NCBI GenBank assembly: GCA_016209865.1
Contig: JACQVL010000262.1
Coordinates: 1 to 55,834 of the forward strand
Source: Candidatus Latescibacterota bacterium
GTDB lineage: Bacteria; JAAXHH01; JACQVL01
Direction of reading: 5' to 3'
Length of the DNA stretch: 55,834 bases
Shown here: positions 6,399 to 39,643 of the stretch, piece after piece
Position numbering within the stretch: position 1 is the first letter of the stretch
Layout: each line of letters starts with the position of its first letter
Made by a program: the position numbers and the translations under genes
The notes under the pieces: model-generated
Told to the model about the DNA's origin: nothing
Seen by the model: the letters and a program-made list of their open reading frames with translations, nothing else
Databases searched by the model: none

Positions 6399-6427
6399 GT
6401 GCGCTCCTGTTGTGCAATTTGGCCTCT

Positions 6428-6775
6428 TTACAACTCGAACCAACGCTGCAAAACGGATTTGAGATGGACGAACGCAGGATCAGTGCAACGTTCAACACTC
6501 TCGTGTTCCAGGTCATCTCGTGATAGGTGATCTTGCCCACACCCTTCACGGTCGCACATCACCAGGGCGTGGGCATATCGGTTGACGAAGGGTCGGAGGA
6601 AATCATGTCCTGCTAACACGCATCCAGGGTCACGAGCGGGATGTATAAAGATGTCATACGTGAATTGACGGATATCAAGCGCTTGGGATCGGGAGAACAA
6701 ACCTTTGACCGCAAACTCCATATTTTTATCGGAGACAAGCACAACGAGATCTTTCTCAAAGTCGTCGTCTTTCAT
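6428..6775 (-). CDS. Hypothetical 115-aa protein, partner of the upstream ATPase (unknown family)
   Basis: Its ATG overlaps the ATPase stop codon (ATGA at 6772-6775). Low-GC codon usage like the ATPase. Acidic motifs VVLVSDKNME, HPARDPG and VMCDREG. No HNH motif or clear Toprim E..DxD that I can recognise. Confidence 0.6.
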   Translation of the reverse strand: MKDDDFEKDLVVLVSDKNMEFAVKGLFSRSQALDIRQFTYDIFIHPARDPGCVLAGHDFLRPFVNRYAHALVMCDREGCGQDHLSRDDLEHESVERCTDPAFVHLKSVLQRWFEL

Positions 6776-7974
6776 CCCAAGACGCCCCCGGCAAAAAGCA
6801 CTCCCAAATTTGTCTCGCCGCGCCAGTCCTTGAGGGCTGGGTGTTCACTCCCTACCACGATGTCTGTCGCTCCATCCAGGGTTTTTGCGAAGCACAACAC
6901 CTGATTCGCCTCAGCCACACTCAGAATCACTGGAGAATGAGTGGCTAAGAGGATTTGTGCATGATAGACAGATGAGAGAGACTGAAACATCGTTTCCACG
7001 GCTCGTGGATGAATGCCGTTCTCGGGCTCTTCGATGAGGTAGACACCCTGAAAATCTGACAAATAGGCTGGGAGTGTCAATGCCAGGAGACGGAGGGTCC
7101 CATCTGAGACGACCCAGGAGGGAATCTCCCATCCTCCTTGATACCGGATGACCAGATACCGGTGTCGATCATCCGGTCGCTCGATCGTTCGGATATCTTC
7201 GATGTCAGGAAGAGCAGTCTGCACATGTGCGATCCACTCACGAAAGCGATCAGGAGCCTTTTTCTGGAGATTATCCAACACCCACGGTAGGTTGGAACCA
7301 TCCGGTCTGAATCCTCGCCCCTGTCCCGGTGGGCTGGCTTTCCGGATGAGCGCGCTATTCAGGACGAACTGTTGTACCCCTTCGGTCAGCAGTCCTTTTA
7401 ACCAGGTGGTGACTGGAAACTTAGACTCATCTTCGGGGAGGTTGCCCAGTGCAGATTTACGAGGACCGAGTTTGAACGCGGATGCCCAGCCCTTGCCTGG
7501 GAGGTGATACGCTTCAGAATAGTAGTTATCATTGCCGCCGGGAACCTTATGGACAACCGTGCGTAGTCCCCTGGCATTTTTGCGAGTCAGGATGGTATTC
7601 ACCTGATCGATTGGCATAGGAAACATGACACGTTGGATAGGGGACTGTGATTTCGCTCTCTTGAGCAAAGCTTTTTCAGCGAGAATACTGATCTCATCCG
7701 TTCCAGGAGCGAGTCCGATAGCGACTTCGTAGCGAATCGTATCATAGTGATGTTCTGTTAACAGCTTCCGACGATCCTCAGGGATCTGCGCTTCGATCGC
7801 AAGTTCAAACTTCCGTCCTGCCCGTTTCCAGACCAGATCTTGGAAATTGTGAGTCCGTTCACTCACTGCAACTTCAAGCCCATCGGATACTAACCTCCCA
7901 AGAAACGCCACGACATCCAAGAACGTCGTCTTCCCGCTGGCGTTGGGCCCCACAAGGACATGAAACGGTTCCAA
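6772..7974 (-). CDS. SMC/ABC-like AAA_21-type ATPase. The uninterrupted ORF is given here; the true 5' end is probably at 8030 with a 1-nt frameshift.
   Basis: Walker A GPNASGKTT, signature-like SDGTLRLLAL, Walker B VYLIEEPENGIHP and H-loop LLATHSP. The track start is a TTG. An ATG at 8028-8030 with SD GGAAGGGA opens MIAQIETLNFR.. in another frame (see finding). Confidence 0.85.
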   Translation of the reverse strand: MEPFHVLVGPNASGKTTFLDVVAFLGRLVSDGLEVAVSERTHNFQDLVWKRAGRKFELAIEAQIPEDRRKLLTEHHYDTIRYEVAIGLAPGTDEISILAEKALLKRAKSQSPIQRVMFPMPIDQVNTILTRKNARGLRTVVHKVPGGNDNYYSEAYHLPGKGWASAFKLGPRKSALGNLPEDESKFPVTTWLKGLLTEGVQQFVLNSALIRKASPPGQGRGFRPDGSNLPWVLDNLQKKAPDRFREWIAHVQTALPDIEDIRTIERPDDRHRYLVIRYQGGWEIPSWVVSDGTLRLLALTLPAYLSDFQGVYLIEEPENGIHPRAVETMFQSLSSVYHAQILLATHSPVILSVAEANQVLCFAKTLDGATDIVVGSEHPALKDWRGETNLGVLFAGGVLG

Positions 7975-8133
7975 AGGCTGGCGAATATAGTGAAAACACG
8001 GAAGTTCAACGTTTCAATCTGCGCAATCATGGTTCATTCCCTTCCTTCGGACAATATCCATGAATTCCATAAGCCACAGGTTCCAATTCATCAGTTTCCT
8101 CTCTGGAATCCAAGTCATCTGACTGCTGTCACG

Positions 8134-9105
8134 TTACCCCGAACTCGGCCAGACCTCCGGGTTGACGAGATGCGGCGGCCGTTCGCCGCGCAGCACCTGT
8201 AGGGCTTGCGTGATCGCCGTCCGCCATATCCGGTCTTTGCTCGCGCCCGTCACCCCCGCGATGTGCGGGGTGGCGACGACGTCGTCGCGGTGCAGAAGCG
8301 GGTGATCCGGGGGTGGAGGTTCCGGGTCGAACACATCCAGCCCGGCCCCTCGCAGATGACCCCGTTCGAGCGCGTCGAGCAACGCCGTCTCATCGACCAG
8401 CCCGCCTCGTGCGGTGTTGATGAGGATCGCGCCAGGCTTCATCCGGGCCAATCGTTCCGCATCGATCAGACGACGGGTCTCGGCCGTGAGCGGGAGGTGG
8501 AGGGACACCACATCCGCCGCGCGTAAGACCTCTTCGAGGGTGGGCGCGAGGTCGATGCCGAGTTCCATCCCTCGATCAGCAGACACATACGGGTCGTACG
8601 CCATGACGGTCATCCCCAGCGCCCGGCCGATCGTGGCGACGTGCCCACCGATCCGGCCGACGCCGATCAGGCCGAGCCGCAGGCCATGTACTTCCAGTCC
8701 GTGGTGCTCGTTGAAATAATCCCTCGTCCCGCCACGCCGGAGTAGCCCTTCGATGCGCTTGATCTGTTTGGCCACGGCGAGCATCAGGGTGACGGCGTGC
8801 TCCGCCGCCGAGATCGTCGGGCCGTCGGGGGCGTTGCATACCGCGATCCTGCGCGCCGTGGCGTCGGGGATGGAGATGTTGTCGACGCCGATGCCCGTGC
8901 GGGAGATGACCCGCAGGCCGGGCGCCTGATCCATCAACGCCCCGTCGTACCGGATGCGGGCTGAGGCGATGATCGCCTGGGCGTCTGGCAGGGCGATCAG
9001 CGGGGTGTCGGGCGTGGCGCTGGCCGGGCCGAGGGCGACGGCGACCCCGTCGAGCAGCGGGACGTACTGAGGGGACAACGCCCGTTCGAACCAGATGCGG
9101 AACAT
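8134..9105 (-). CDS. D-isomer-specific 2-hydroxyacid dehydrogenase (phosphoglycerate dehydrogenase-like)
   Basis: Start trimmed to the ATG at 9105 (SD GGAGG). NAD-binding GLIGVGRIGGHVA, and a catalytic-region ARGGLVDE..GAGLDVF..EP....PHIAG pattern. Confidence 0.85.
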   Translation of the reverse strand: MFRIWFERALSPQYVPLLDGVAVALGPASATPDTPLIALPDAQAIIASARIRYDGALMDQAPGLRVISRTGIGVDNISIPDATARRIAVCNAPDGPTISAAEHAVTLMLAVAKQIKRIEGLLRRGGTRDYFNEHHGLEVHGLRLGLIGVGRIGGHVATIGRALGMTVMAYDPYVSADRGMELGIDLAPTLEEVLRAADVVSLHLPLTAETRRLIDAERLARMKPGAILINTARGGLVDETALLDALERGHLRGAGLDVFDPEPPPPDHPLLHRDDVVATPHIAGVTGASKDRIWRTAITQALQVLRGERPPHLVNPEVWPSSG

Positions 9106-9142
9106 GAAACCTCCTCCCTCCTCTCCCTTCCCCACCGGGCAG

Positions 9143-9240
9143 GTGGGCAATGGGCAGTGGGCAATCGAAGCCGTTCCCTCGTCTACTGCCCATCTGCCTG
9201 GCGGGGTCGGGTGGCTGTGCGGGGACTGCCTACTGCCCGG
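9143..9240. repeat. Heptamer-arm element (GGGCAGT / ACTGCCC class)
   Basis: Left arm GTGGGCA ATGGGCA GTGGGCA AT (9143-9165). Inverted arms ACTGCCCATCTGCC (9185-9198) and ACTGCCTACTGCCC (9225-9238). Intergenic. Confidence 0.8.
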
Positions 9241-9264: not shown

Positions 9265-10461
9265 TCACACTGTCTGCAACGCCGCCTCGATGTCCGCCAG
9301 AATGTCCTCCACCCCTTCGATGCCGATGGACATCCGCACTAAGCCGTCCCCGATGCCGATCCGCTGGCGCTGCTCCGGCGCGAGGCTGCGATGGGAGGAG
9401 GTGGCGGGATGGAGGACGAGGGTTTCCACGTCGCCCAGGGTGGTGGCGGCCTGGCACAGCCGCAAGCCGTTGATGAACCGCCAGGCCGTCTCCATCGTCC
9501 CATCGCCGAGGTCGAACGCGACCACTCCCCCGAACCCGGCGCCCCCGAACAGGCGGACGGCCCGGTCGTGGTCGGGGTGGCTCGACAGGCCGGGATAATC
9601 GACCCGTGTCACCTTCGGGTGAGCCTCCAAAAACCGGGCGACGGTCATCGCGTTCTCGCAGTGCTGCCGCATCCGCAATGGGAACGTCTTGATGCCCCGG
9701 AGGAGCAGCCACGCCTCGAACGGGCTGAGCACCCCGCCCAAGTTGCGTCGGAGTTTGTCCACCCGGTCGTGGAACGCCGGAGCGACGGCCACCCCGCAGG
9801 TGATGTCCCCGTGCCCGCCTAAGTACTTCGTCCCGCTGTGCACCACACAGTCCACCCCCCACTCCAGCGGGCGGGCCAGGTAGGGAGTGGCGAACGTGTG
9901 GTCGATGACCACCCGCGCGCCGTAGCGATGGGAGAGTTCGACGATGCGGGGGACGTCGATCACCCGGAGCAACGGGTTGGACATCGTCTCGATGTACGTT
10001 GCGGCGACCGCCCCCTTCGCCAGCGTCGCCTCGACCTGATCGAGGTGGTCCGCTTCGACGAACACCGTCTCCACGCCCAGGCCGGCGAGGTCGTTGACGA
10101 GCAGGGCGTACGTCCCGCCGTACAGGTCGCGCGACGCCATGACCGTCCGGCCTGCGCCCACGCCCACCCCTAACAGTCCGGCCAGGATAGCGGCCATCCC
10201 GGAGCCGAACGCGACGGCGGTCTCCGCGCCCTCTAAGTCGGCGACGACCGCTTCCGCCGCGACGACGGTGGGGTTGGCGTAGCGGCTGTAGACGTAGCCG
10301 GTCTCCTTGCCCTCGAACACCCGGACTGCATCCTCGATACGGTCGTAGGCAAAGCTGGATGTCGGGTAGATCGGCGCTGACGTCGGCTGGTGGGAGAAGC
10401 GTCCGGCGTGTTCGGGCGGATGGATGGCGCGTGTGGTGAGCGTGTACGGGCGAGCAGGCAT
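9265..10461 (-). CDS. Cys/Met-metabolism PLP-dependent enzyme (O-acetylhomoserine sulfhydrylase / cystathionine gamma-synthase-lyase family)
   Basis: 398 aa. Motifs PIY.TSSF, YSRY.NPT and HSGTKYLGGHGD (PLP lysine). The C-terminal LVRMSIGIE is typical of the family. Confidence 0.9.
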   Translation of the reverse strand: MPARPYTLTTRAIHPPEHAGRFSHQPTSAPIYPTSSFAYDRIEDAVRVFEGKETGYVYSRYANPTVVAAEAVVADLEGAETAVAFGSGMAAILAGLLGVGVGAGRTVMASRDLYGGTYALLVNDLAGLGVETVFVEADHLDQVEATLAKGAVAATYIETMSNPLLRVIDVPRIVELSHRYGARVVIDHTFATPYLARPLEWGVDCVVHSGTKYLGGHGDITCGVAVAPAFHDRVDKLRRNLGGVLSPFEAWLLLRGIKTFPLRMRQHCENAMTVARFLEAHPKVTRVDYPGLSSHPDHDRAVRLFGGAGFGGVVAFDLGDGTMETAWRFINGLRLCQAATTLGDVETLVLHPATSSHRSLAPEQRQRIGIGDGLVRMSIGIEGVEDILADIEAALQTV

Positions 10462-10478
10462 ACGGGACTCCTTCAGAA

Positions 10479-10517
10479 AGGACGAAGGATAAAGGGCGAA
10501 GGACGAACGAGAAGGAA
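10479..10517. repeat. Single-arm heptamer array (AAGGACG class)
   Basis: AAGGACG AAGGATA AAGGGCG AAGGACG AACGAGA. On the minus-strand mRNA it reads as a CGTCCTT array that ends 17 nt before the start codon at 10461. Confidence 0.8.
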
Positions 10518-10545
10518 TAAAAACGTATTCTCAGGCATTTGTCAA
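10517..10545 (-). promoter_or_regulatory. Possible sigma70-like promoter for the 9265-10461 gene
   Basis: On the minus strand: TTGACA (rc of 10540-10545), 17 nt, then TTTTAT (rc of 10517-10522). This would place the heptamer array in the 5'UTR. Confidence 0.35.
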
Positions 10546-10653
10546 GGGACATGCACGTGAAACGAACATCTCTTGCATAAGACCGGGCGATGTATTATTT
10601 TGAGATAAGAAACTGGCTGAAGAAGTGCCATAAGTTACTGGCATGGCCTCTGC

Positions 10654-10768
10654 GGCCCTCACCCCCGGCCCCTCTCCCACGGCGGGGAGAGGGGAAACGA
10701 GCGTTCTTGTGAAGGACTCCCCCTTTCTCGCCCCTTGTGGGAGAGAAAGGGGGGGGATAGTGAGGGCC
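10654..10768. repeat. Nested palindromic element (two G/C-rich hairpins enclosed by an outer stem)
   Basis: Outer stem GGCCCTCAC (10654-10662) / GTGAGGGCC (10760-10768). Hairpin 1 is CCCCTCTCCC (10669-10678) / GGGGAGAGGGG (10684-10694). Hairpin 2 is CCCCCTTTCTC (10719-10729) / GAGAGAAAGGGGG (10741-10753). Confidence 0.8.
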
Positions 10769-10793
10769 ATCAGGGCGACCCAACCCGGAGGAC

Positions 10794-12266
10794 GTGATGA
10801 TGACAACGTATCGATGGTTTGTGGGACTCATCCTGCTCCTGCCCGTCCTGGCGGTGACACGGACGGCGGGAGCGGAAGAGACGGCATCGCGGGACCCGAA
10901 GCTGCTGCCGGCCTACAGCACGGGCGACATCCAGTTCTCCGTCGATGCCGCCGGGTTCAAAGGGGCCGGCGGGCAGACCTACGAAGAATTGTACCTGCTG
11001 TTACGGCCCAACCAGTTGACACTCGTCGAGAAGGGGAAGAAATTCCAGGGGACGTTCCAGATCGACGGGGTCGTCTACGACGAGAGCGGGGCAGAGAAGA
11101 AACGGTTTTCCGAACAGCGGATGCTCGAGACGGATGAGCCGGTGCTGAAAGACCGCACCGGGAACGAACGGATGATGGTCGATGTCGTGCCAGTCAGCCT
11201 CGACTCCGGGACGTACCGGGTGGATGTGGTCGTCTCGGACCTCAACTCACAGAAGAAGGGGACGTGCATCAAGCAGTTCATGGCCAGCGGGTATGACGAC
11301 GCGACACTGACGATCAGCGATATTCAGTTTTCTACCCTGGCGCAGCCGGACACGACCGCTCATCGATTCACCAAGAACGGGATTCTCGTCGTCCCCAACC
11401 CCGCGCGGTTGTTCGAGAAAAAACCGGATGCCCCGCTCTATGAAGTGGCTGACTCCCCCGTGCGCCCTCCTGAACCGCGTTTGATGTATTTTTACTTCGA
11501 GATCTATAACTTCGCGGTCGATCCATCAGGCGCGCCATCGACGTATGATCTCTCCTTCGCCGTCATCCATGAGGCCGGAGGGGGCCGGCAGACGCTGCCG
11601 GCGCAGAAGAATATCCAGAAACCCGGTTCCAGCAGTGTCAAGGTGTTAAAGCTGGACATCAGTTCGTTCCAGGAGGGAGTCTATACCCTTGAGTTAATGA
11701 TCCACGACAACCTCAGCGGCCAGGATGCCACACGGCGGGCGTTCTTCGAGGTCTTCCAGCCCCCTCCATCGCCAGCGCCGCAGAACGTCCTGACCAAAGC
11801 CCAGGCCGAACGCGGGTACAAAATGCTCAGGTTCATCGCCTCTTCCCGCGACCTGGCGCTGTACAAGAAACTCGACCTGAAAGGGCAGACCGAGTTTCTC
11901 ATCAACTTCTGGAAGGAACGGGATCCCACCCCGGATACCCCGGAGAACGAGTTCTTAGCCGTCCTCAACGAACGCTTTACGTATGCCGAGCGAACCCTGG
12001 GCGGGGCGGACAGCGACCGGGGACGGGTCTGGATGAAGTACGGGGAGCCTGAAGAGATCGAACGGCATCCGTCGGACGCGCGGACGAAGCCTTATGAGAT
12101 CTGGTTCTACACGACGGGTGTCAGGGGCGACGCCTCTCAGTCCACCCAGGGCAGACAGCTCTTCATCTTCGGCGACCGGACGGGGTACGGCAAATACATG
12201 CTCCTCCATTCCTCGGTCGTCGGTGAGACCCACAACCCCAACTGGATCAGCGAATTAGTCGAGTGA
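10794..12266 (+). CDS. Secreted GWxTD-domain-like protein
   Basis: 490 aa. Signal peptide MMMTTYRWFVGLILLLPVLAVTRTAGA. The C-terminal block GGADSDRGRVWMKYGEPEEIERHP....KPYEIWFY matches the GWxTD-domain pattern as I recall it. Confidence 0.75.
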   Translation: MMMTTYRWFVGLILLLPVLAVTRTAGAEETASRDPKLLPAYSTGDIQFSVDAAGFKGAGGQTYEELYLLLRPNQLTLVEKGKKFQGTFQIDGVVYDESGAEKKRFSEQRMLETDEPVLKDRTGNERMMVDVVPVSLDSGTYRVDVVVSDLNSQKKGTCIKQFMASGYDDATLTISDIQFSTLAQPDTTAHRFTKNGILVVPNPARLFEKKPDAPLYEVADSPVRPPEPRLMYFYFEIYNFAVDPSGAPSTYDLSFAVIHEAGGGRQTLPAQKNIQKPGSSSVKVLKLDISSFQEGVYTLELMIHDNLSGQDATRRAFFEVFQPPPSPAPQNVLTKAQAERGYKMLRFIASSRDLALYKKLDLKGQTEFLINFWKERDPTPDTPENEFLAVLNERFTYAERTLGGADSDRGRVWMKYGEPEEIERHPSDARTKPYEIWFYTTGVRGDASQSTQGRQLFIFGDRTGYGKYMLLHSSVVGETHNPNWISELVE

Positions 12267-13572: not shown

Positions 13573-15675
13573 TTAACTGTCCTCCCGCGCCGGGGTGCGT
13601 GTCAAGAGGCTCTCGACGAGGATGAGCGCCAGCGCTCCCCAGAGGAGGAGTTTCCACACCTCATGCTCCTGCTGGGACTGCAGGATTTCTTCCGCTAAGT
13701 TGGCGTTCGGCTGGACGATCCGCACCGGCGTCCCGTTGAGGAGCCGTCGAACCTCCGCCAGGTCGAGTCGCGCCGGGTCGGATTCTTTCGTGTCCACATT
13801 GACGGCAAACTCGTTCAGCAGGCGGTCGCCCGACTGGATGCGGTAGATCCCGGGCTCGTCCGTATGGGCGACGGTCACGGCCATCCCGCTGTTCGAGGAA
13901 ACGGGTTTCAGGCGTTCTGTCCCGCCGGACGGCAGGACGACCGTGACCGGCTCGTCGGCGTCCGACCAGCTCACCACCCGTTCAGTCGGCGTCCCTACTA
14001 CAATCTCTTTTCCGGATGCATCAAAATCCGTCCCGACGTACCGGACGCCCCGGTGCATCAACGGGACGAACAGGCTCTTGAGGGGAAGATCGCTCCACCG
14101 CATGTTGGGGGCGGAGGGGATGAGCAGGGCGCGGCCTCGCCCGGACTGTCCCTCGACGATCGCCGGAGTCCCGTCACTGAACCGTGCGATCACGCGGGCT
14201 TGCGGGCCGGGGCTGAGCCGGTAGGAGGAGAAGAACCGGGGGGAATCAGCCAGCCAGCCTTGCGCCGGTTTGAAGACCTCGAAGACCGGGTGTTCCTGGT
14301 CGATCCAGCCGACACTCAGGTGCGACTGCTGCTGTCCCGGCGTCCCGATCCGCCCCTGGATGGCGCAAGAGAACAGCGTCGACAACAGGCCGGGGTTGTA
14401 CGAGGCGGCGTTGACCCCGTCGCCGAGGAACAGGATCAGTCCCCCGCCGGAGGCCACGAACCGGTCGAGCGCGGAGAGATGCGCCGGCGAGAGATCCCGC
14501 CCGCCGGTGAGGACGACCACCCGGTACCCGCTCAGCCTGCCCTCGTTGAGCGCATCCACCGGGGCGGTCGTGACGGCCACCGGGGAGGTCATCGCCCCCG
14601 CCGGACTGAGGACGTGCCGGAGAAAATACCCGGATTCCTCATCTGCCACGACGAGCGCGTTGATCTTGTCCGGGATCGTCACCGTGAAATACCGGTGGTT
14701 GTCCGCGTCCAGGTCGTCTTCCTCCAATTCGACGTACCCGGCGTAGTGGCCGGGATCGTCCACTGTCGGACTGAACCGTGCGATGCCCGTCTTGCCCGGC
14801 TCGGCGCTGATTCGCATACTCCCCCGCTTGACCCCGTTGAGGGACAGGCTGACCAGGCGATCCCGGAGCGGCTCCTGGCTTCGATTCGTCACCGTCGCCA
14901 CGATCGATAGGGGCTGCCGGGTCTCGACGAGCCGTCCGCCCAGCGTCACCGCGTCGAGGCTCGCGTTCCGGACCGGGGGAGAGGGCACCGGGAACAGAAA
15001 CAGGTTCACTCTGGGGTCGAGCCGGACGGCCGTCTGCCCCTCCGCTAAGGATCGCCAGTCGTGCTGCTGCACGTCCGTCATTAAGTAGACCTCACGGGTC
15101 AGGGTGCTGGCTTTCGAGAGCAGGGAAGACGCCAGCGTCAACGCCGCTCCGATGTCACCCGGTTTGTTCGACAGGACAGTCTTCTCCAAGGCGGTGCGCA
15201 GCCGGTCGACCCCCTGAACCGGACGGTCGCTCGTCGCGCTCGGTGGCGCGGCCGTCAGGACGAGGACGAGCTCGTCCCCGTCAGACAGGCGGCTGAGAAT
15301 CCGGCGTCCCGTCTCTTTCGCGCGGGCAAACGCCGACTCCTCAGACCCGCCCGCGCCCATGCTGTACGAGTTGTCCAGGACGATGGCGACCGCCGTCTTT
15401 TCGTGCGTCGCCGGACTGAGGACCGAGCCGAACGTGCCCTGTACCGCCGGCCGGGCAAACGCGAACACCGCCAGCGCGATGATCGCCGAACGGACGAGCA
15501 ACAGCAGGATCTGACGAAGCTTGAACGCCCGTGACTGGCGCAGGTGCAGAGGCTTGATGAACGCGATCGAGCTGAAGTCGACCGTGCGGACGCGCTGCCG
15601 GTGGAACAGATGGATGAGGATCGGAATCGCCGCCGCCACGAGGCCGGCTAACATCGCAACATTCAGGAATGTCAT
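13573..15675 (-). CDS. BatA-like N-terminal double-transmembrane-domain protein with a vWA-like region
   Basis: 700 aa. N-terminus MTFLNVAMLAGLVAAAIPILIHLFHRQR....F.S..F, a second TM helix, IVLDNSYSM (MIDAS-like), and a C-terminal TM helix. Confidence 0.8.
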   Translation of the reverse strand: MTFLNVAMLAGLVAAAIPILIHLFHRQRVRTVDFSSIAFIKPLHLRQSRAFKLRQILLLLVRSAIIALAVFAFARPAVQGTFGSVLSPATHEKTAVAIVLDNSYSMGAGGSEESAFARAKETGRRILSRLSDGDELVLVLTAAPPSATSDRPVQGVDRLRTALEKTVLSNKPGDIGAALTLASSLLSKASTLTREVYLMTDVQQHDWRSLAEGQTAVRLDPRVNLFLFPVPSPPVRNASLDAVTLGGRLVETRQPLSIVATVTNRSQEPLRDRLVSLSLNGVKRGSMRISAEPGKTGIARFSPTVDDPGHYAGYVELEEDDLDADNHRYFTVTIPDKINALVVADEESGYFLRHVLSPAGAMTSPVAVTTAPVDALNEGRLSGYRVVVLTGGRDLSPAHLSALDRFVASGGGLILFLGDGVNAASYNPGLLSTLFSCAIQGRIGTPGQQQSHLSVGWIDQEHPVFEVFKPAQGWLADSPRFFSSYRLSPGPQARVIARFSDGTPAIVEGQSGRGRALLIPSAPNMRWSDLPLKSLFVPLMHRGVRYVGTDFDASGKEIVVGTPTERVVSWSDADEPVTVVLPSGGTERLKPVSSNSGMAVTVAHTDEPGIYRIQSGDRLLNEFAVNVDTKESDPARLDLAEVRRLLNGTPVRIVQPNANLAEEILQSQQEHEVWKLLLWGALALILVESLLTRTPAREDS

Positions 15676-37614: not shown

Positions 37615-38787
37615 CTACGCCCCGGTCTTGGCGTTGAGGACTTCCTTGAGCACCTCCAGAAAGACTTCATTCTCCCGGTGCGTACCGACCGACACCCGGA
37701 TGAAATTGGGCATTCCGAACGCACGACGGATCAAGATTTTTCGGGCTTCCAGTTGATCGACGAGCGGCTTCGTATCGCGTCCGACGTCCGCGATCACGAA
37801 GATCGTCTGCGTCTTCACCGGCTTCAGACCAAGCCGGGCCAGCTCGGTGTACAGGTATTCTTTCTCCGTGCGGACATGCGTTCGCACGCGCTGAACATGC
37901 TCATCATCATCGAACGCGGCGATCGCCGCCGCATCGCCGATGATGGTCCGGCCCAGCCAGCCGAGATAGAACGGTTTGACCCGTTCGATCAGACTCGGAT
38001 GACCGATGCCGTACCCGATGCGCATCCCGCCCAGGCCGTAAGCCTTGGACATCGTTTTGGTGACGAACAGGTTGCGTTTCGTCTTCGTCAGCGGGATGAC
38101 GCTGGGATACTGCTCATCATCCACGAAATCCAGGTACGCTTCATCGACGCAGACGATGATATTCTCCGGCACGCTGTCGATGAATTTCCGCAGTGCGTCC
38201 GCCGGGAGAAGCTGGCCGGTCGGGTTGTTCGGGTTGGTGATGGAGACGATCTTCGTGTCGGACGTGATCGCCTTCCGGACGACGTCGAGGTCGATCTGGA
38301 GGTCTTTCGTCAGTTTCACCCGGACGACCGGTCTGCCGATATCCTCCGCCATTCCTGAAATAGCTCCGTACCCCGGCTCCGGTTCGACGACTCCTCCGCC
38401 GTTGACGATCGCCGTCAGGGTGATGGCGTTCAGGATCTCAGAGGAGCCGACGCCGTTGGCCACCATATCCGCCGTGACCCCGTGGTGCCGGGCGATGGCC
38501 TCGTGCAGCACCGGCTCGCGGGCCGGGTACCGGTTGAGGGCGAACAGTTTTTTGGCCGCCGCTTCGACCGCGTGCGGGGAGGGGCCCAGCGGGTTCTCGT
38601 TGATCGACAGTTGGACGAGCCCAGGGTCTTCCAATCCTGCGCCGTACACCAGTCGCCCTTTCGGGCCGCCGACCATCGCGGCGGCGGTCTTCCACAAGGA
38701 CGCGCTCGCCAGGGTGGTCAGCCCCCCGGCGACGGCGGTCTGGATGAATCGACGACGGGATACCGCGATAGGCGATGGAGTACTCAT
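37615..38787 (-). CDS. Class I/II (HisC-like) PLP aminotransferase with an N-terminal twin-arginine signal
   Basis: 390 aa. Tat motif SRRRFIQTAVAGGLTTLASASLW..AAA. PLP-lysine region TMSKAYGLGGMRIGYG. SD AAGGAGG lies 6 nt before the ATG. Confidence 0.88.
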   Translation of the reverse strand: MSTPSPIAVSRRRFIQTAVAGGLTTLASASLWKTAAAMVGGPKGRLVYGAGLEDPGLVQLSINENPLGPSPHAVEAAAKKLFALNRYPAREPVLHEAIARHHGVTADMVANGVGSSEILNAITLTAIVNGGGVVEPEPGYGAISGMAEDIGRPVVRVKLTKDLQIDLDVVRKAITSDTKIVSITNPNNPTGQLLPADALRKFIDSVPENIIVCVDEAYLDFVDDEQYPSVIPLTKTKRNLFVTKTMSKAYGLGGMRIGYGIGHPSLIERVKPFYLGWLGRTIIGDAAAIAAFDDDEHVQRVRTHVRTEKEYLYTELARLGLKPVKTQTIFVIADVGRDTKPLVDQLEARKILIRRAFGMPNFIRVSVGTHRENEVFLEVLKEVLNAKTGA

Positions 38788-38806
38788 GATGTCCTCCTTG
38801 ATAAAG

Positions 38807-38905
38807 CAAGGATGAAGGGGTAAGGACGAAGGACGAACAGTAAGGATTCATGAAACGTGTCATTCCCACGCAAGCGGGAATCCATCGCTTTGGCCTTCGT
38901 CCTTG
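38807..38905. repeat. Composite heptamer-arm element (AAGGACG class) with core hairpin
   Basis: Left arm CAAGGAT GAAGGGG TAAGGAC GAAGGAC (38807-38847). Core GTCATTCCCACGCAAGCGGGAATCC (38859-38883). Short right arm CCTTCGTCCTTG (38894-38905). Confidence 0.9.
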
Positions 38906-38979
38906 TAGTGGTGAATGTAATCATACTTGTCGAAATTACAAGGATTTTCTCTTTATAGTACACCGGGCAGACAAATTCC

Positions 38980-39008
38980 TTGACAGAAAGCCGATATTTT
39001 TTTATGAT
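38980..39008 (+). promoter_or_regulatory. Strong sigma70-like promoter reading into the next repeat element and the 39215 gene
   Basis: TTGACA (38980-38985), exactly 17 nt, then TATGAT (39003-39008), in an AT-rich context. Confidence 0.55.
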
Positions 39009-39041
39009 AAGAATATTCCAGCCGGTGTATCCATGTTAAAC

Positions 39042-39192
39042 AAGGGACGAAGTCGTTCAGAAGTAAGGACGAAGGAGTAAGGACGAAGGACGAAATTGAA
39101 AGGATGAAAGACAACTCTCTTGTTTCTGTCATTCCCGCGCAAGCGGGAATCCATCATCTTTTTCGTCCTTTGTCCTTCATACTTCGTCCTTG
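39042..39192. repeat. Composite heptamer-arm element (AAGGACG class) with core hairpin, located in a 5'UTR
   Basis: Left arm 39042-39110 (TAAGGAC GAAGGAG TAAGGAC GAAGGAC ...). Core GTCATTCCCGCGCAAGCGGGAATCC at 39128-39152. Right arm CTTTTTCGTCCTTTGTCCTTCATACTTCGTCCTTG at 39158-39192. Confidence 0.9.
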
Positions 39193-39214
39193 CAGTCATG
39201 AAAGGGGAGAGGTC

Positions 39215-39643
39215 ATGAAGACGCGCGCGCTCGTCGTGGGCCTGATGGGGGTCTGCCTCCTCTGCTCCGGACTCATCGGGTGTTTCTCGTTTTTTCAATC
39301 GACGCCCATAGACCCGTTGGCCCTTCAGGTGAAACAGGAGCAGGCGGACGTCAAACGCCTGCAGACGTCTGCCGACAGTCTGGCTGCCAACCGGAGGCGG
39401 GTGTGGGAGGATATCCAGACGCTGAAAGTGCTACAGACGCTGACGCCCGACCAGATCGCGGCGTTGCCCGGGATGGAAGGGAAAGAAAACCTGATGACGT
39501 CTGCGAGTGCCTCAGATACGAGTCGGCAGTCGTCGTCAGCCATGCAGGCCGAGAAGAAGGGCATCGTCGGCAGCATTACGGGCAGTATTACCGGGTTCTT
39601 CGGGAAGATCGGGAACGGACTGAAGAAGCTCTGGCCGTTTTAA
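39215..39643 (+). CDS. Hypothetical lipoprotein, 142 aa
   Basis: Start trimmed to the ATG at 39215 (SD AGGGGAGAGG). Lipobox LCSGLIGC. Coiled-coil middle region and a GSITGSITG tail. The upstream part of the track ORF is translated repeat. Confidence 0.65.
   Translation: MKTRALVVGLMGVCLLCSGLIGCFSFFQSTPIDPLALQVKQEQADVKRLQTSADSLAANRRRVWEDIQTLKVLQTLTPDQIAALPGMEGKENLMTSASASDTSRQSSSAMQAEKKGIVGSITGSITGFFGKIGNGLKKLWPF

Follow-up and report, generated by a model that had tools for sequence, protein, structure and literature searches.

A probably inactive MAD3-MAD4 cassette with lesions in both genes in a contig of Candidatus Latescibacterota

Introduction

MADS, from Pseudomonas aeruginosa SMC4386 (Maestri et al., Cell Host Microbe 2024; 10.1101/2023.03.30.534895), is a system of eight genes which encode MAD3, MAD4, an HTH protein, an N6-methyltransferase, an S subunit, a kinase, a DptG-like protein and a HerA-like protein, and the detection model of its authors makes MAD6, MAD7 and MAD8 mandatory within a few genes of the MAD3-MAD4 pair. 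Both mad3 and mad4 are required for phage resistance, and the two act alongside the methyltransferase (10.1101/2023.03.30.534895). Mad4 is a DUF4276 protein (HHpred, 99.78%; supplement of 10.1101/2023.03.30.534895), and DUF4276 and RloB belong to the Toprim superfamily (PMC12065111). HEC-01, listed in PADLOC-DB and originally defined by Payne et al. as a candidate embedded in an Hma system, is composed of an ABC ATPase (HEC-01A) and an adjacent TOPRIM protein (HEC-01B) and gave no protection in published E. coli assays (10.1101/2024.01.29.577857).

Here we compare with these systems a two-gene locus on a contig of Candidatus Latescibacterota, the whole analysed stretch of which (55.8 kb) is referred to below as the window. 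An initial annotation, made from the sequence alone, had proposed that an SMC-like ATPase gene and a 115-aa ORF form a candidate defence-type module with a possible new effector. As judged by profile searches and alignments, both proteins belong to families that have already been described, and we correct the annotation of the locus to a most probably pseudogenised MAD3/MAD4, HEC-01-type cassette rather than a possible new effector family.

Results

Composition and setting of the island

The island, at 6428-8133, is the longest low-GC run of the whole window, having 51.5% GC relative to a mean of 62.3% for the whole 55.8 kb, across which 500-nt windows vary with an SD of 4%. Third codon positions give the same picture, with GC3 values of 0.55 for the ATPase gene and 0.52 for the small ORF as against 0.77-0.89 for five neighbouring genes, in agreement with the low GC content noted in the initial annotation. 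The described location between an NHL-propeller gene and a dehydrogenase gene was also borne out, both flanking genes being identified on the minus strand. The features of the locus are as follows:

5427-6398/6443, minus strand: NHL-repeat gene, flanking the island
6428-6775, minus strand: remnant of MAD4 (DUF4276-type, Toprim-like), 115 aa, from NF047734 and alignments
6772-6775, minus strand: ATGA start/stop overlap of MAD4 and MAD3 (ATG 6775-6773, TGA 6774-6772)
6772-7974, minus strand: ABC ATPase of the MAD3 type, main reading frame, 400 aa as found (TTG start), 419 aa when repaired
7975-8030, minus strand: original 5' end of MAD3, now out of frame (ATG 8030-8028), from three-frame translation
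8031-8133, minus strand: upstream intergenic region of the cassette, ~45% GC, read from the sequence
8134-9105/9150, minus strand: D-2-hydroxyacid dehydrogenase gene, flanking the island

The low-GC tract comes to within 29 nt of the NHL gene at one end and stops ~100 nt short of the dehydrogenase gene at the other, and no additional foreign DNA or gene fragments are left between the tract and its flanking genes. Neither a tRNA gene nor an Rfam family was found at the island, and searches for flanking direct and inverted repeats returned just short matches at chance level, consistent with the previous report of no flanking direct repeats. A scan around the cassette for promoter and terminator consensus sequences, including sigma-70, was not above shuffle expectation. 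The region 7975-8133 has a GC content of 0.447, and a Shine-Dalgarno-like sequence, GAAGGAAGGG, lies at 8039-8048, immediately before the native ATG.

MAD3 shares 77% identity with a copy from Anaerolineales, relative to 61-62% for the host LigA and its best match among GTDB species representatives. On this contrast, together with composition, the island is foreign to its host and was horizontally acquired. The NHL protein has distant relatives alone among the GTDB species representatives (identity <=37%), and consequently there was no syntenic genome for an empty-site comparison. Apart from the pair, the ten largest ORFs of the window encode SecDF, MurG, LigA, a histidine kinase, a radical-SAM protein, GGT, CarA, HflX, a GWxTD-domain protein and a double-TM-anchor protein, none of which was matched by the MADS models.

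The ATPase is a MAD3 protein

The ATPase motifs described in the initial annotation (GPNASGKTT, SDGTLRLLAL, VYLIEEPENGIHP and LLATHSP) were read directly in the ORF at 6772-7974. Walker A (GPNASGKT), signature (SDGTLR), Walker B with its catalytic Glu (YLIEEPE) and H-loop (ATHSP), the elements of an ABC ATPase of the AAA_21/SMC-like type, are all intact and are invariant in homologues. The assignment to that type is further upheld by the match to Pfam AAA_21 (E 1.1e-27) and by the nearest solved structures, which are OLD (6p74, E 4.6e-13) followed by PtuA, GajA and AriA.

Within this type the ORF belongs to the NCBIfam family NF047739 (antiphage_MADS3), for which it scored 494.6 bits with positions 20-427 of the model covered, the curated cut-off being 420 bits together with full-length model coverage; the one-nt-repaired protein scored 521 bits and its coverage widened to positions 1-427. 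Among the PADLOC profiles the best match was HEC-01A (E 7.6e-40), followed by mad3 (E 2.4e-31) and, more weakly, by AriA (8.2e-29) and AbiLi (1.2e-19). The ATPase is 72-77% identical to intact homologues. We measured decay as deviations at conserved columns, since synonymous sites would be saturated at the 77% protein identity of the nearest relative, and found that only one of the 128 MAD3 columns conserved at >=95% deviates, a column located at the frameshift site described below.

A frameshift at the 5' end of MAD3

The ATG at 8030, which is preceded by the Shine-Dalgarno-like sequence, is in a different frame from the main ATPase ORF, and reading from it stops after 46 aa, at 7890. The alternative starts given by the initial annotation (7974/8030) therefore reflect a real frameshift. 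We placed a 1-nt deletion inside GTGTTTTCAC at 7990-7999, since insertion of a single base restores an N-terminus beginning MIAQIETLNFRVFHYIRQPLEPF; the residues M1, I2, I5, E6, Y15, I16 and Q18 of this N-terminus are invariant in MAD3 homologues. As read from the sequence, the deletion leaves the ATPase ORF cut off from the ATG that follows the Shine-Dalgarno-like sequence, and the TTG that remains as the start of the 400-aa ORF has no Shine-Dalgarno sequence. We considered programmed frameshifting and rejected it because homologues encode the N-terminus of MAD3 in one frame.

An exact-product look-up of the dehydrogenase retrieved a Logan contig (L088, from SRR12113390, 2236 nt) that corresponds to positions 6918-9153 of the window with one mismatch and no gap. 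As it is gapless at 7990-7999, a second assembly carries the same frameshift, although the reads behind this contig may be the ones from which the window was assembled. A metagenome pattern scan for the frameshift site returned no matches, whether the pattern was taken as found or given one additional base, so that an intact allele was not found.

The 115-aa ORF is an internally deleted MAD4

The small ORF was correctly reported to start on the stop codon of the ATPase gene, and the ATGA overlap implies translational coupling of MAD3 and MAD4. The suggestion that it may belong to an undescribed or very divergent family did not survive profile searches: the ORF matched NF047734 (antiphage_MADS4) with 100.6 bits and an E-value of 1.2e-28, mainly through residues 8-87 on model positions 1-85 of 206. 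This score is below the cut-off of 160 bits over the 206-position model, which full-length relatives exceed (P0001, 230.6 bits; P0002, 233.5 bits; P0014, 209.6 bits). We attribute the shortfall to an internal deletion of ~94 residues, overlooked when the ORF was taken for a whole gene; sequence comparison indicates that the 115-aa copy is homologous to MAD4 and incomplete. The PADLOC mad4 profile matched it at 9e-4.

Alignments show that the ORF consists of both ends of a ~200-aa protein fused in frame, residues 7-92 matching the N-terminus of homologues and residues 93-115 the C-terminus, with the junction near 6500|6499 (GAACACGAG|AGTGTT). Residues 82-175 of the homologue P0002 (~94 residues, 282 nt) are absent. 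The lost segment contains 18 of the 38 conserved MAD4 columns, including P102, E103, E105, W107, K144 and P148, while 19 of the 20 in the retained segments are kept, and the acidic positions D16, E20, D49, D75 and E77 are still present. Among the best 150 of 1661 representatives, nearly all family members are ~200-215 aa long. No repeats were found at the junction, and an in-frame outcome would be expected by chance in one of three deletions. A metagenome pattern scan for the junction gave no matches, so the deletion has been seen in one assembly.

Fold of MAD4

Hallmarks of the DUF4276/Toprim fold are an alpha/beta core of four strands, with an acidic residue following β1 and a DxD-type motif following β3. 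In the AlphaFold model of P0002 (pLDDT 97), strands and helices alternate over the first 100 residues, and the segment lost from the window copy corresponds to half of the helix at 75-91, the strand at 95-100 and five helices. As located on this model, the deletion takes out β4, the fourth core strand. The 115-aa copy retains both the conserved D/E of ADKNME and the DxE of DREG. The three acidic motifs singled out in the initial annotation correspond to conserved motifs of the fold described for MAD4/DUF4276: one follows β1, one surrounds the invariant Asp, which is D38 in the reference homologue, and one follows β3. Where no canonical Toprim E...DxD motif had been recognised, the literature places MAD4 in that superfamily through DUF4276, and we take the Toprim assignment from there (10.1101/2023.03.30.534895; PMC12065111).

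Pfam DUF4276 was matched by 12 of 83 family members (best 5.5e-6) and the RloB model touched just one of the 83. Foldseek searches of the PDB and BFVD with the MAD4 model returned nothing significant (best E-values 0.2 and 0.03), an RloB-like phage protein with a TMq of 0.40 falling in the non-significant range, and a profile search of PDB sequences with MAD4 gave no significant match. Matches of the model to integrase, RuvC and ferrochelatase structures were weak (TM <=0.3) and were dismissed as noise. The MAD4 fold is thus predicted with very high confidence, yet has no detectable relative among solved structures, a combination possibly useful to defence-system researchers.

Conservation of the pair

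In 81 of 84 related loci, which come from more than ten phyla, MAD4 is the gene immediately downstream of MAD3, and in 68 of the 81 the genes share a 4-nt start/stop overlap. By these genomic comparisons, MAD3 and MAD4 are a conserved, translationally coupled pair of defence type. Most of the related pairs stand alone beside housekeeping genes (e.g., gyrB, leuB, mutY, yjeF, fabD, and fabG), and ~12 of the 84, about one in seven, are inside helicase/methylase/ATPase or restriction-modification operons. Six loci (L005, L014, L021, L030, L033, and L036) lie among genes for SNF2 helicases, DUF1156 methylases and DUF499 proteins, and in four of them the pair is between the methylase and DUF499 genes. 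At L005, which has the closest MAD3 relative (77% identity), the pair sits between a DrmD-like SNF2 helicase gene and DUF1156 and DUF499 genes.

Discussion

The locus most resembles MADS and HEC-01. With MADS it shares the NCBIfam families of both proteins and the adjacent ATPase-then-DUF4276 order; however, the ten largest ORFs outside the pair include no match to the other six MADS genes, so that it is not a MADS locus, the Pseudomonas-derived mad3 and mad4 profiles of PADLOC match more weakly than HEC-01A, and the window copy is frameshifted and internally deleted. With HEC-01 it shares the two-gene composition of ABC ATPase and TOPRIM-like protein, a pairing already catalogued, and HEC-01A is the best PADLOC match of the ATPase. 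Relatives such as L005 and L014 show the embedded arrangement that defined HEC-01, whereas the window copy lacks Hma genes and is not embedded in a larger system. HEC-01B did not match the window copy and matched the full-length relative P0002 marginally (E 0.002). PARIS, OLD nucleases, Gabija (GajA), Septu (PtuA), AbiL (AbiLi/AbiLii) and RloA/RloB are similar in joining an AAA_15/AAA_21-type ABC ATPase to a nuclease, which is of the Toprim type in most. The partner here is instead of the DUF4276 type, and not DUF4435 (AriB), a fused OLD Toprim, HNH (PtuB) or RloB, and all of these families score much lower than MAD3 and HEC-01A do. Assignment to PARIS was rejected, as the AriA match is weaker than those to HEC-01A and mad3 and there is no DUF4435/AriB partner; a search for DUF4435/AriB with the small protein and its full-length relatives gave no match.

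We consider it very probable that the locus is a horizontally acquired MAD3-MAD4 cassette of a known kind, in which both genes are damaged and which is most likely non-functional. By analogy with OLD, Gabija and PARIS, MAD3 of an intact pair may be an ATP-driven sensor or scaffold that controls MAD4, and MAD4 a metal-dependent Toprim nuclease. The copy described here stands alone between housekeeping genes, with its MAD3 damaged by the frameshift and its MAD4 by the internal deletion. As the retained parts are unworn and the GC content has not shifted to that of the host, acquisition and inactivation both look recent. The proposal of a defence-type module is accordingly upheld for the kind of locus, a coupled and conserved pair known as HEC-01 or as part of MADS, but is unlikely to hold for this copy, in which both genes bear lesions.

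It is conceivable, if unlikely, that the organism itself has an intact pair and that the frameshift and deletion are sequencing or assembly errors of a metagenome-derived contig. Conserved positions in the retained parts are nearly all pristine, the gene-position collection has no entry for the 400-aa or the 115-aa product (exact-product look-ups of these and of the NHL protein found nothing), and the pattern scans disclosed no further contig with either lesion, all of which would fit such errors. However, the frameshift recurs in the Logan contig, a clean in-frame loss of 282 nt without junction repeats is atypical of assembly errors, and decayed MAD4 copies also occur at other related loci (L020, L027, L040, L043, and L070).

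That the pair is a working module with the 115-aa partner as a new compact effector, as first proposed, appears highly improbable. Its translational coupling, an in-frame deletion and the near-complete retention of the remaining conserved MAD4 residues speak for this proposal, but the partner is a deletion derivative of a family of longer proteins that has lost β4 and the invariant P102, E103, W107, K144 and P148, and the ATPase lacks an N-terminal strand region kept in all homologues and is left with a start without a Shine-Dalgarno sequence. Inactivating lesions in both genes thus make a working module unlikely. There is similarly very little likelihood that the pair is the last trace of a larger system based on methylation, either MADS or an operon of the Hma/DISARM kind, of which the rest was deleted, an origin suggested by the setting of L005, by the minority of embedded loci and by the cooperation of mad3 and mad4 with a methyltransferase in MADS, but opposed by a low-GC tract that ends near both flanking genes with nothing foreign left over, by the stand-alone majority of related loci and by the unmatched MADS models.

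Taken alone, the locus is of little weight, being an ordinary and probably dead defence-gene remnant. The mostly stand-alone occurrence of MAD3-MAD4 bears on whether the pair acts autonomously and may be useful to researchers of defence systems. We give a very low probability to the combined proposal that stand-alone MAD3-MAD4 is a highly mobile cassette acting autonomously in defence or addiction and that the in-frame mini-MAD4 is a selected regulatory or dominant-negative variant. The scarcity of decay at retained positions (deviations at one of 128 in MAD3 and one of 20 in MAD4) is equally compatible with a selected variant and with an assembly error. Two observations on the related loci favour the autonomous-cassette reading: copies of the pair from more than ten phyla share 60-77% identity and have a GC content consistently below that of their hosts, and the pair adjoins core genes without visible mobility genes.

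Composition and identity of the island

The low-GC two-gene island proposed in the initial annotation was borne out by windowed statistics. In 400-nt windows the GC content is 0.50-0.55 across about 6400-8200, relative to 0.62-0.67 before and 0.61-0.70 after it, and 6428-8133 has a GC content of 51.5% against a window mean of 62.3% (SD 4%). The GC3 values of its two ORFs are 0.55 (MAD3) and 0.52 (MAD4), vs. 0.77-0.89 in five neighbouring genes. Both minus-strand ORFs are as described and share an ATGA overlap:

6772-7974, minus strand: MAD3 main ORF (ABC ATPase), 400 aa, TTG start
6428-6775, minus strand: MAD4 remnant ORF, 115 aa
Either side of the island: an NHL-repeat propeller gene and a D-2-hydroxyacid dehydrogenase gene

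No tRNA gene, Rfam family or convincing flanking repeat was found at the island, in agreement with the flanking direct repeats having been reported as missing, and no promoter or terminator signals there rose above chance. The window has further short low-GC stretches at 38751-39250 (GC 0.47-0.54, the lowest of the entire window) and near 2501, 15501, 28501, 35251, and 53501.

The ABC/SMC-like reading of the ATPase was right, because it matches Pfam AAA_21 (E 1.1e-27) and passes the cut-off of the curated NCBIfam equivalog model for MAD3 (494.6 bits, cut-off 420), its best PADLOC matches are HEC-01A (7.6e-40) and mad3 (2.4e-31), with scores well above those of AriA, AbiLi, GajA, Old, and PtuA, and the closest solved structures in a profile search are an OLD-family nuclease, PtuA, GajA, and AriA. 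The 115-aa ORF had been assigned to no known family and has no Pfam match, but it matches NCBIfam MAD4 with an E-value of 1.2e-28 (100.6 bits, under the 160 cut-off; ORF residues 8-87 on model positions 1-85 of 206) and, weakly, PADLOC mad4. The locus is thus a stand-alone MAD3-MAD4 (HEC-01-type) cassette that, on our reading, was recently acquired and later damaged in both genes, a degraded member of an already known kind.

Damage to both genes

The ATPase gene is damaged by a frameshift between an ATG at 8030 and the main ORF. This ATG, which has GAAGGAAGGG ahead of it, lies in a different frame, and translation from it ends after 46 aa; no Shine-Dalgarno sequence precedes the TTG at 7974. 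Insertion of one base in GTGTTTTCAC (7990-7999), giving MIAQIETLNFRVFHYIRQPLEPFHVLVGPNASGKTT..., brings the MAD3 score up to 521 bits, and the match then spans model positions 1-427. The repaired ATPase lines up with homologues through the junction, a stretch in which M1, I2, I5, E6, Y15, I16, and Q18 are invariant, and departs from one of 128 highly conserved columns, at position 13, the lesion itself.

The MAD4 gene, judged by alignment, is damaged by an internal deletion (junction near 6500/6499). That the ORF might be a fragment of a longer gene had been foreseen, and it proved to consist of the two ends of an approximately 200-aa protein: residues 7-92 correspond to homologue N-termini and 93-115 to C-termini (SVERCTDPAFVHLKSVLQRWFEL vs. 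VSLKRCTNPAFNKLMTTLQNWF), with about 94 residues missing between. Among 5.8 billion proteins searched, 21 relatives came up, and those that are complete have 199-202 aa; an exhaustive profile search gave 1661 family representatives, the best 150 of which are nearly all about 200-215 aa. P0002, a full-length homologue, was modelled with AlphaFold (83-sequence alignment, pLDDT 97, pTM 0.91); mapped onto this model, the lost segment takes away half of helix 75-91 along with strand 95-100 and five more helices. The motifs VVLVSDKNME, HPARDPG, and VMCDREG were correctly singled out as conserved-looking, although they are known MAD4 family motifs (one following strand β1, one surrounding the invariant Asp, D38 in P0002, and one following strand β3) and not those of an undescribed family.

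We consider it unlikely that both lesions are assembly artefacts. An independently assembled Logan contig of SRR12113390 (2236 nt, possibly from the same reads) covers window 6918-9153 gap-free and with a single mismatch, and therefore carries the same frameshift; a confirming match for the MAD4 deletion was sought in a second assembly and none was found. Still less probable is a functional module with a compact effector: although the remaining conserved MAD4 columns are retained in 19 of 20 cases, of the 38 columns with at least 85% conservation the deletion takes 18, including the invariant P102, E103, W107, K144, and P148.

Fold and proposed function

Mad3 was described by the MADS authors as an ATPase of the AbiEii/AAA_21 type and Mad4 as DUF4276 (HHpred 99.78%), and deletion of either impaired defence by this methylation-associated system (10.1101/2023.03.30.534895). 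A 2025 NAR study assigned RloB and DUF4276, with Mad4 mentioned by name, to the Toprim superfamily, and reported a Glu close to strand β1 and a DxD motif following strand β3 (PMC12065111). Our own tests support this assignment only weakly. Pfam DUF4276 was matched by 12 of 83 MAD4-family members (best E 5.5e-6) and RloB by one, Foldseek gave no significant match for the P0002 model (best E 0.2 in PDB and 0.03 in BFVD; an RloB-like phage protein ranked third, TMq 0.40), and a profile search of PDB sequences found nothing. Despite the pLDDT of 97, no solved representative of the MAD4/DUF4276 fold seems to be detectable by Foldseek. By analogy with OLD, Gabija, and PARIS, the ABC ATPase of an intact pair would likely sense a signal or assemble a complex and control a Toprim-type nuclease. 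[quoted passage not shown]

Origin of the cassette

The host LigA is 61-62% identical to its best matches, in Latescibacterota and Gemmatimonadota MAGs, and the host would thus seem to belong to an uncultured lineage that lacks a close species representative. The window MAD3 is 77% identical to an Anaerolineales copy; this and the un-ameliorated GC3 point to recent horizontal acquisition. It is very improbable that the pair is what was left of a larger methylation-based system, in spite of such settings elsewhere, because 29 nt separate the end of the foreign tract from the NHL start codon and about 100 nt separate its other end from the dehydrogenase stop codon, so that remnants have no space. 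MADS models did not match any of the ten largest other ORFs of the window (SecDF, a MurG-like protein, LigA, a histidine kinase, a B12/radical-SAM protein, GGT, CarA, HflX, and the following two):

10794-12266, plus strand: GWxTD-domain protein
13573-15675, minus strand: protein with an N-terminal double-transmembrane 'two_anch' domain

Context in other genomes

MAD3 relatives occur in more than 564 GTDB species representatives, the best 80 having 59-77% identity and belonging to Chloroflexota, Planctomycetota, Acidobacteriota, Desulfobacterota, Bacillota, Verrucomicrobiota, and other phyla. The suggested co-occurrence check was run: MAD4 lies directly downstream of MAD3 in 81 of 84 loci from many phyla, with a 4-nt start/stop overlap in 68 of the 81. 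Across 75 loci, from hosts of 37% to 72% GC, the median cassette-flank difference is -6.4 points; the cassette is more than 5 points poorer in 48 and never more than 5 points richer.

Clustering of neighbouring ORFs separated embedded from stand-alone pairs. About 12 loci are embedded, with a DUF1156 methylase-like neighbour in nine, DUF499 in seven, and a DrmD-like SNF2 helicase in six. In L014, L030, L033, and L036 the pair is preceded by a DUF1156 methylase-like gene that ends just before it and followed by a DUF499 gene whose start is about 1.85 kb past the MAD3 start, with the helicase further upstream in three, reproducing the Hma-embedded arrangement that defines HEC-01. The same neighbour families are arranged differently in L005 (the closest relative), L011, L021, and L022; MAD3 is at about 10001-11260 in most of these eight. 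In three or four more loci, including L006 (MAD3 9761-11026), L017, and L042, the pair is flanked by an adenine methyltransferase-like gene on one side and a BPTD_3080-family restriction endonuclease-like gene on the other, a second type of restriction-modification operon in which the cassette is found.

Among the remaining, stand-alone loci we found neither a recurrent defence neighbour nor a recognisable recurring mobility gene. Their annotated neighbours are housekeeping genes (gyrB, leuB/spoU/mutY, yjeF, fabD/fabG, rsfS, and spoIVA), and groups beside core genes are L037, L054, L065, L084; L007, L010, L012; L013, L015, L056; and L018, L020, L025. In Planctomycetota gyrB is immediately upstream of the pair.

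A short internal stretch is absent at the same place from two other MAD4-family proteins, P0007 (111 aa) and P0009 (186 aa) (…TRQ/ELEIWVW and …RVAL/LEVWVW). It begins where helix α3 ends and reaches strand β4, with a length of about 17-18 residues in P0009. It overlaps the start of the larger deletion in the window, and this site may be a deletion-prone spot. MAD4 decay seems to recur, as five loci have a split, cut-off or interrupted MAD4 beside an apparently intact MAD3:

L020: 11275-11988
L027: 11254-11896
L043: 11245-11871
L040: 11269-11703 and 14102-14317
L070: 1979-2167

In L040 about 2.4 kb lie between the two pieces, suggestive of an insertion.
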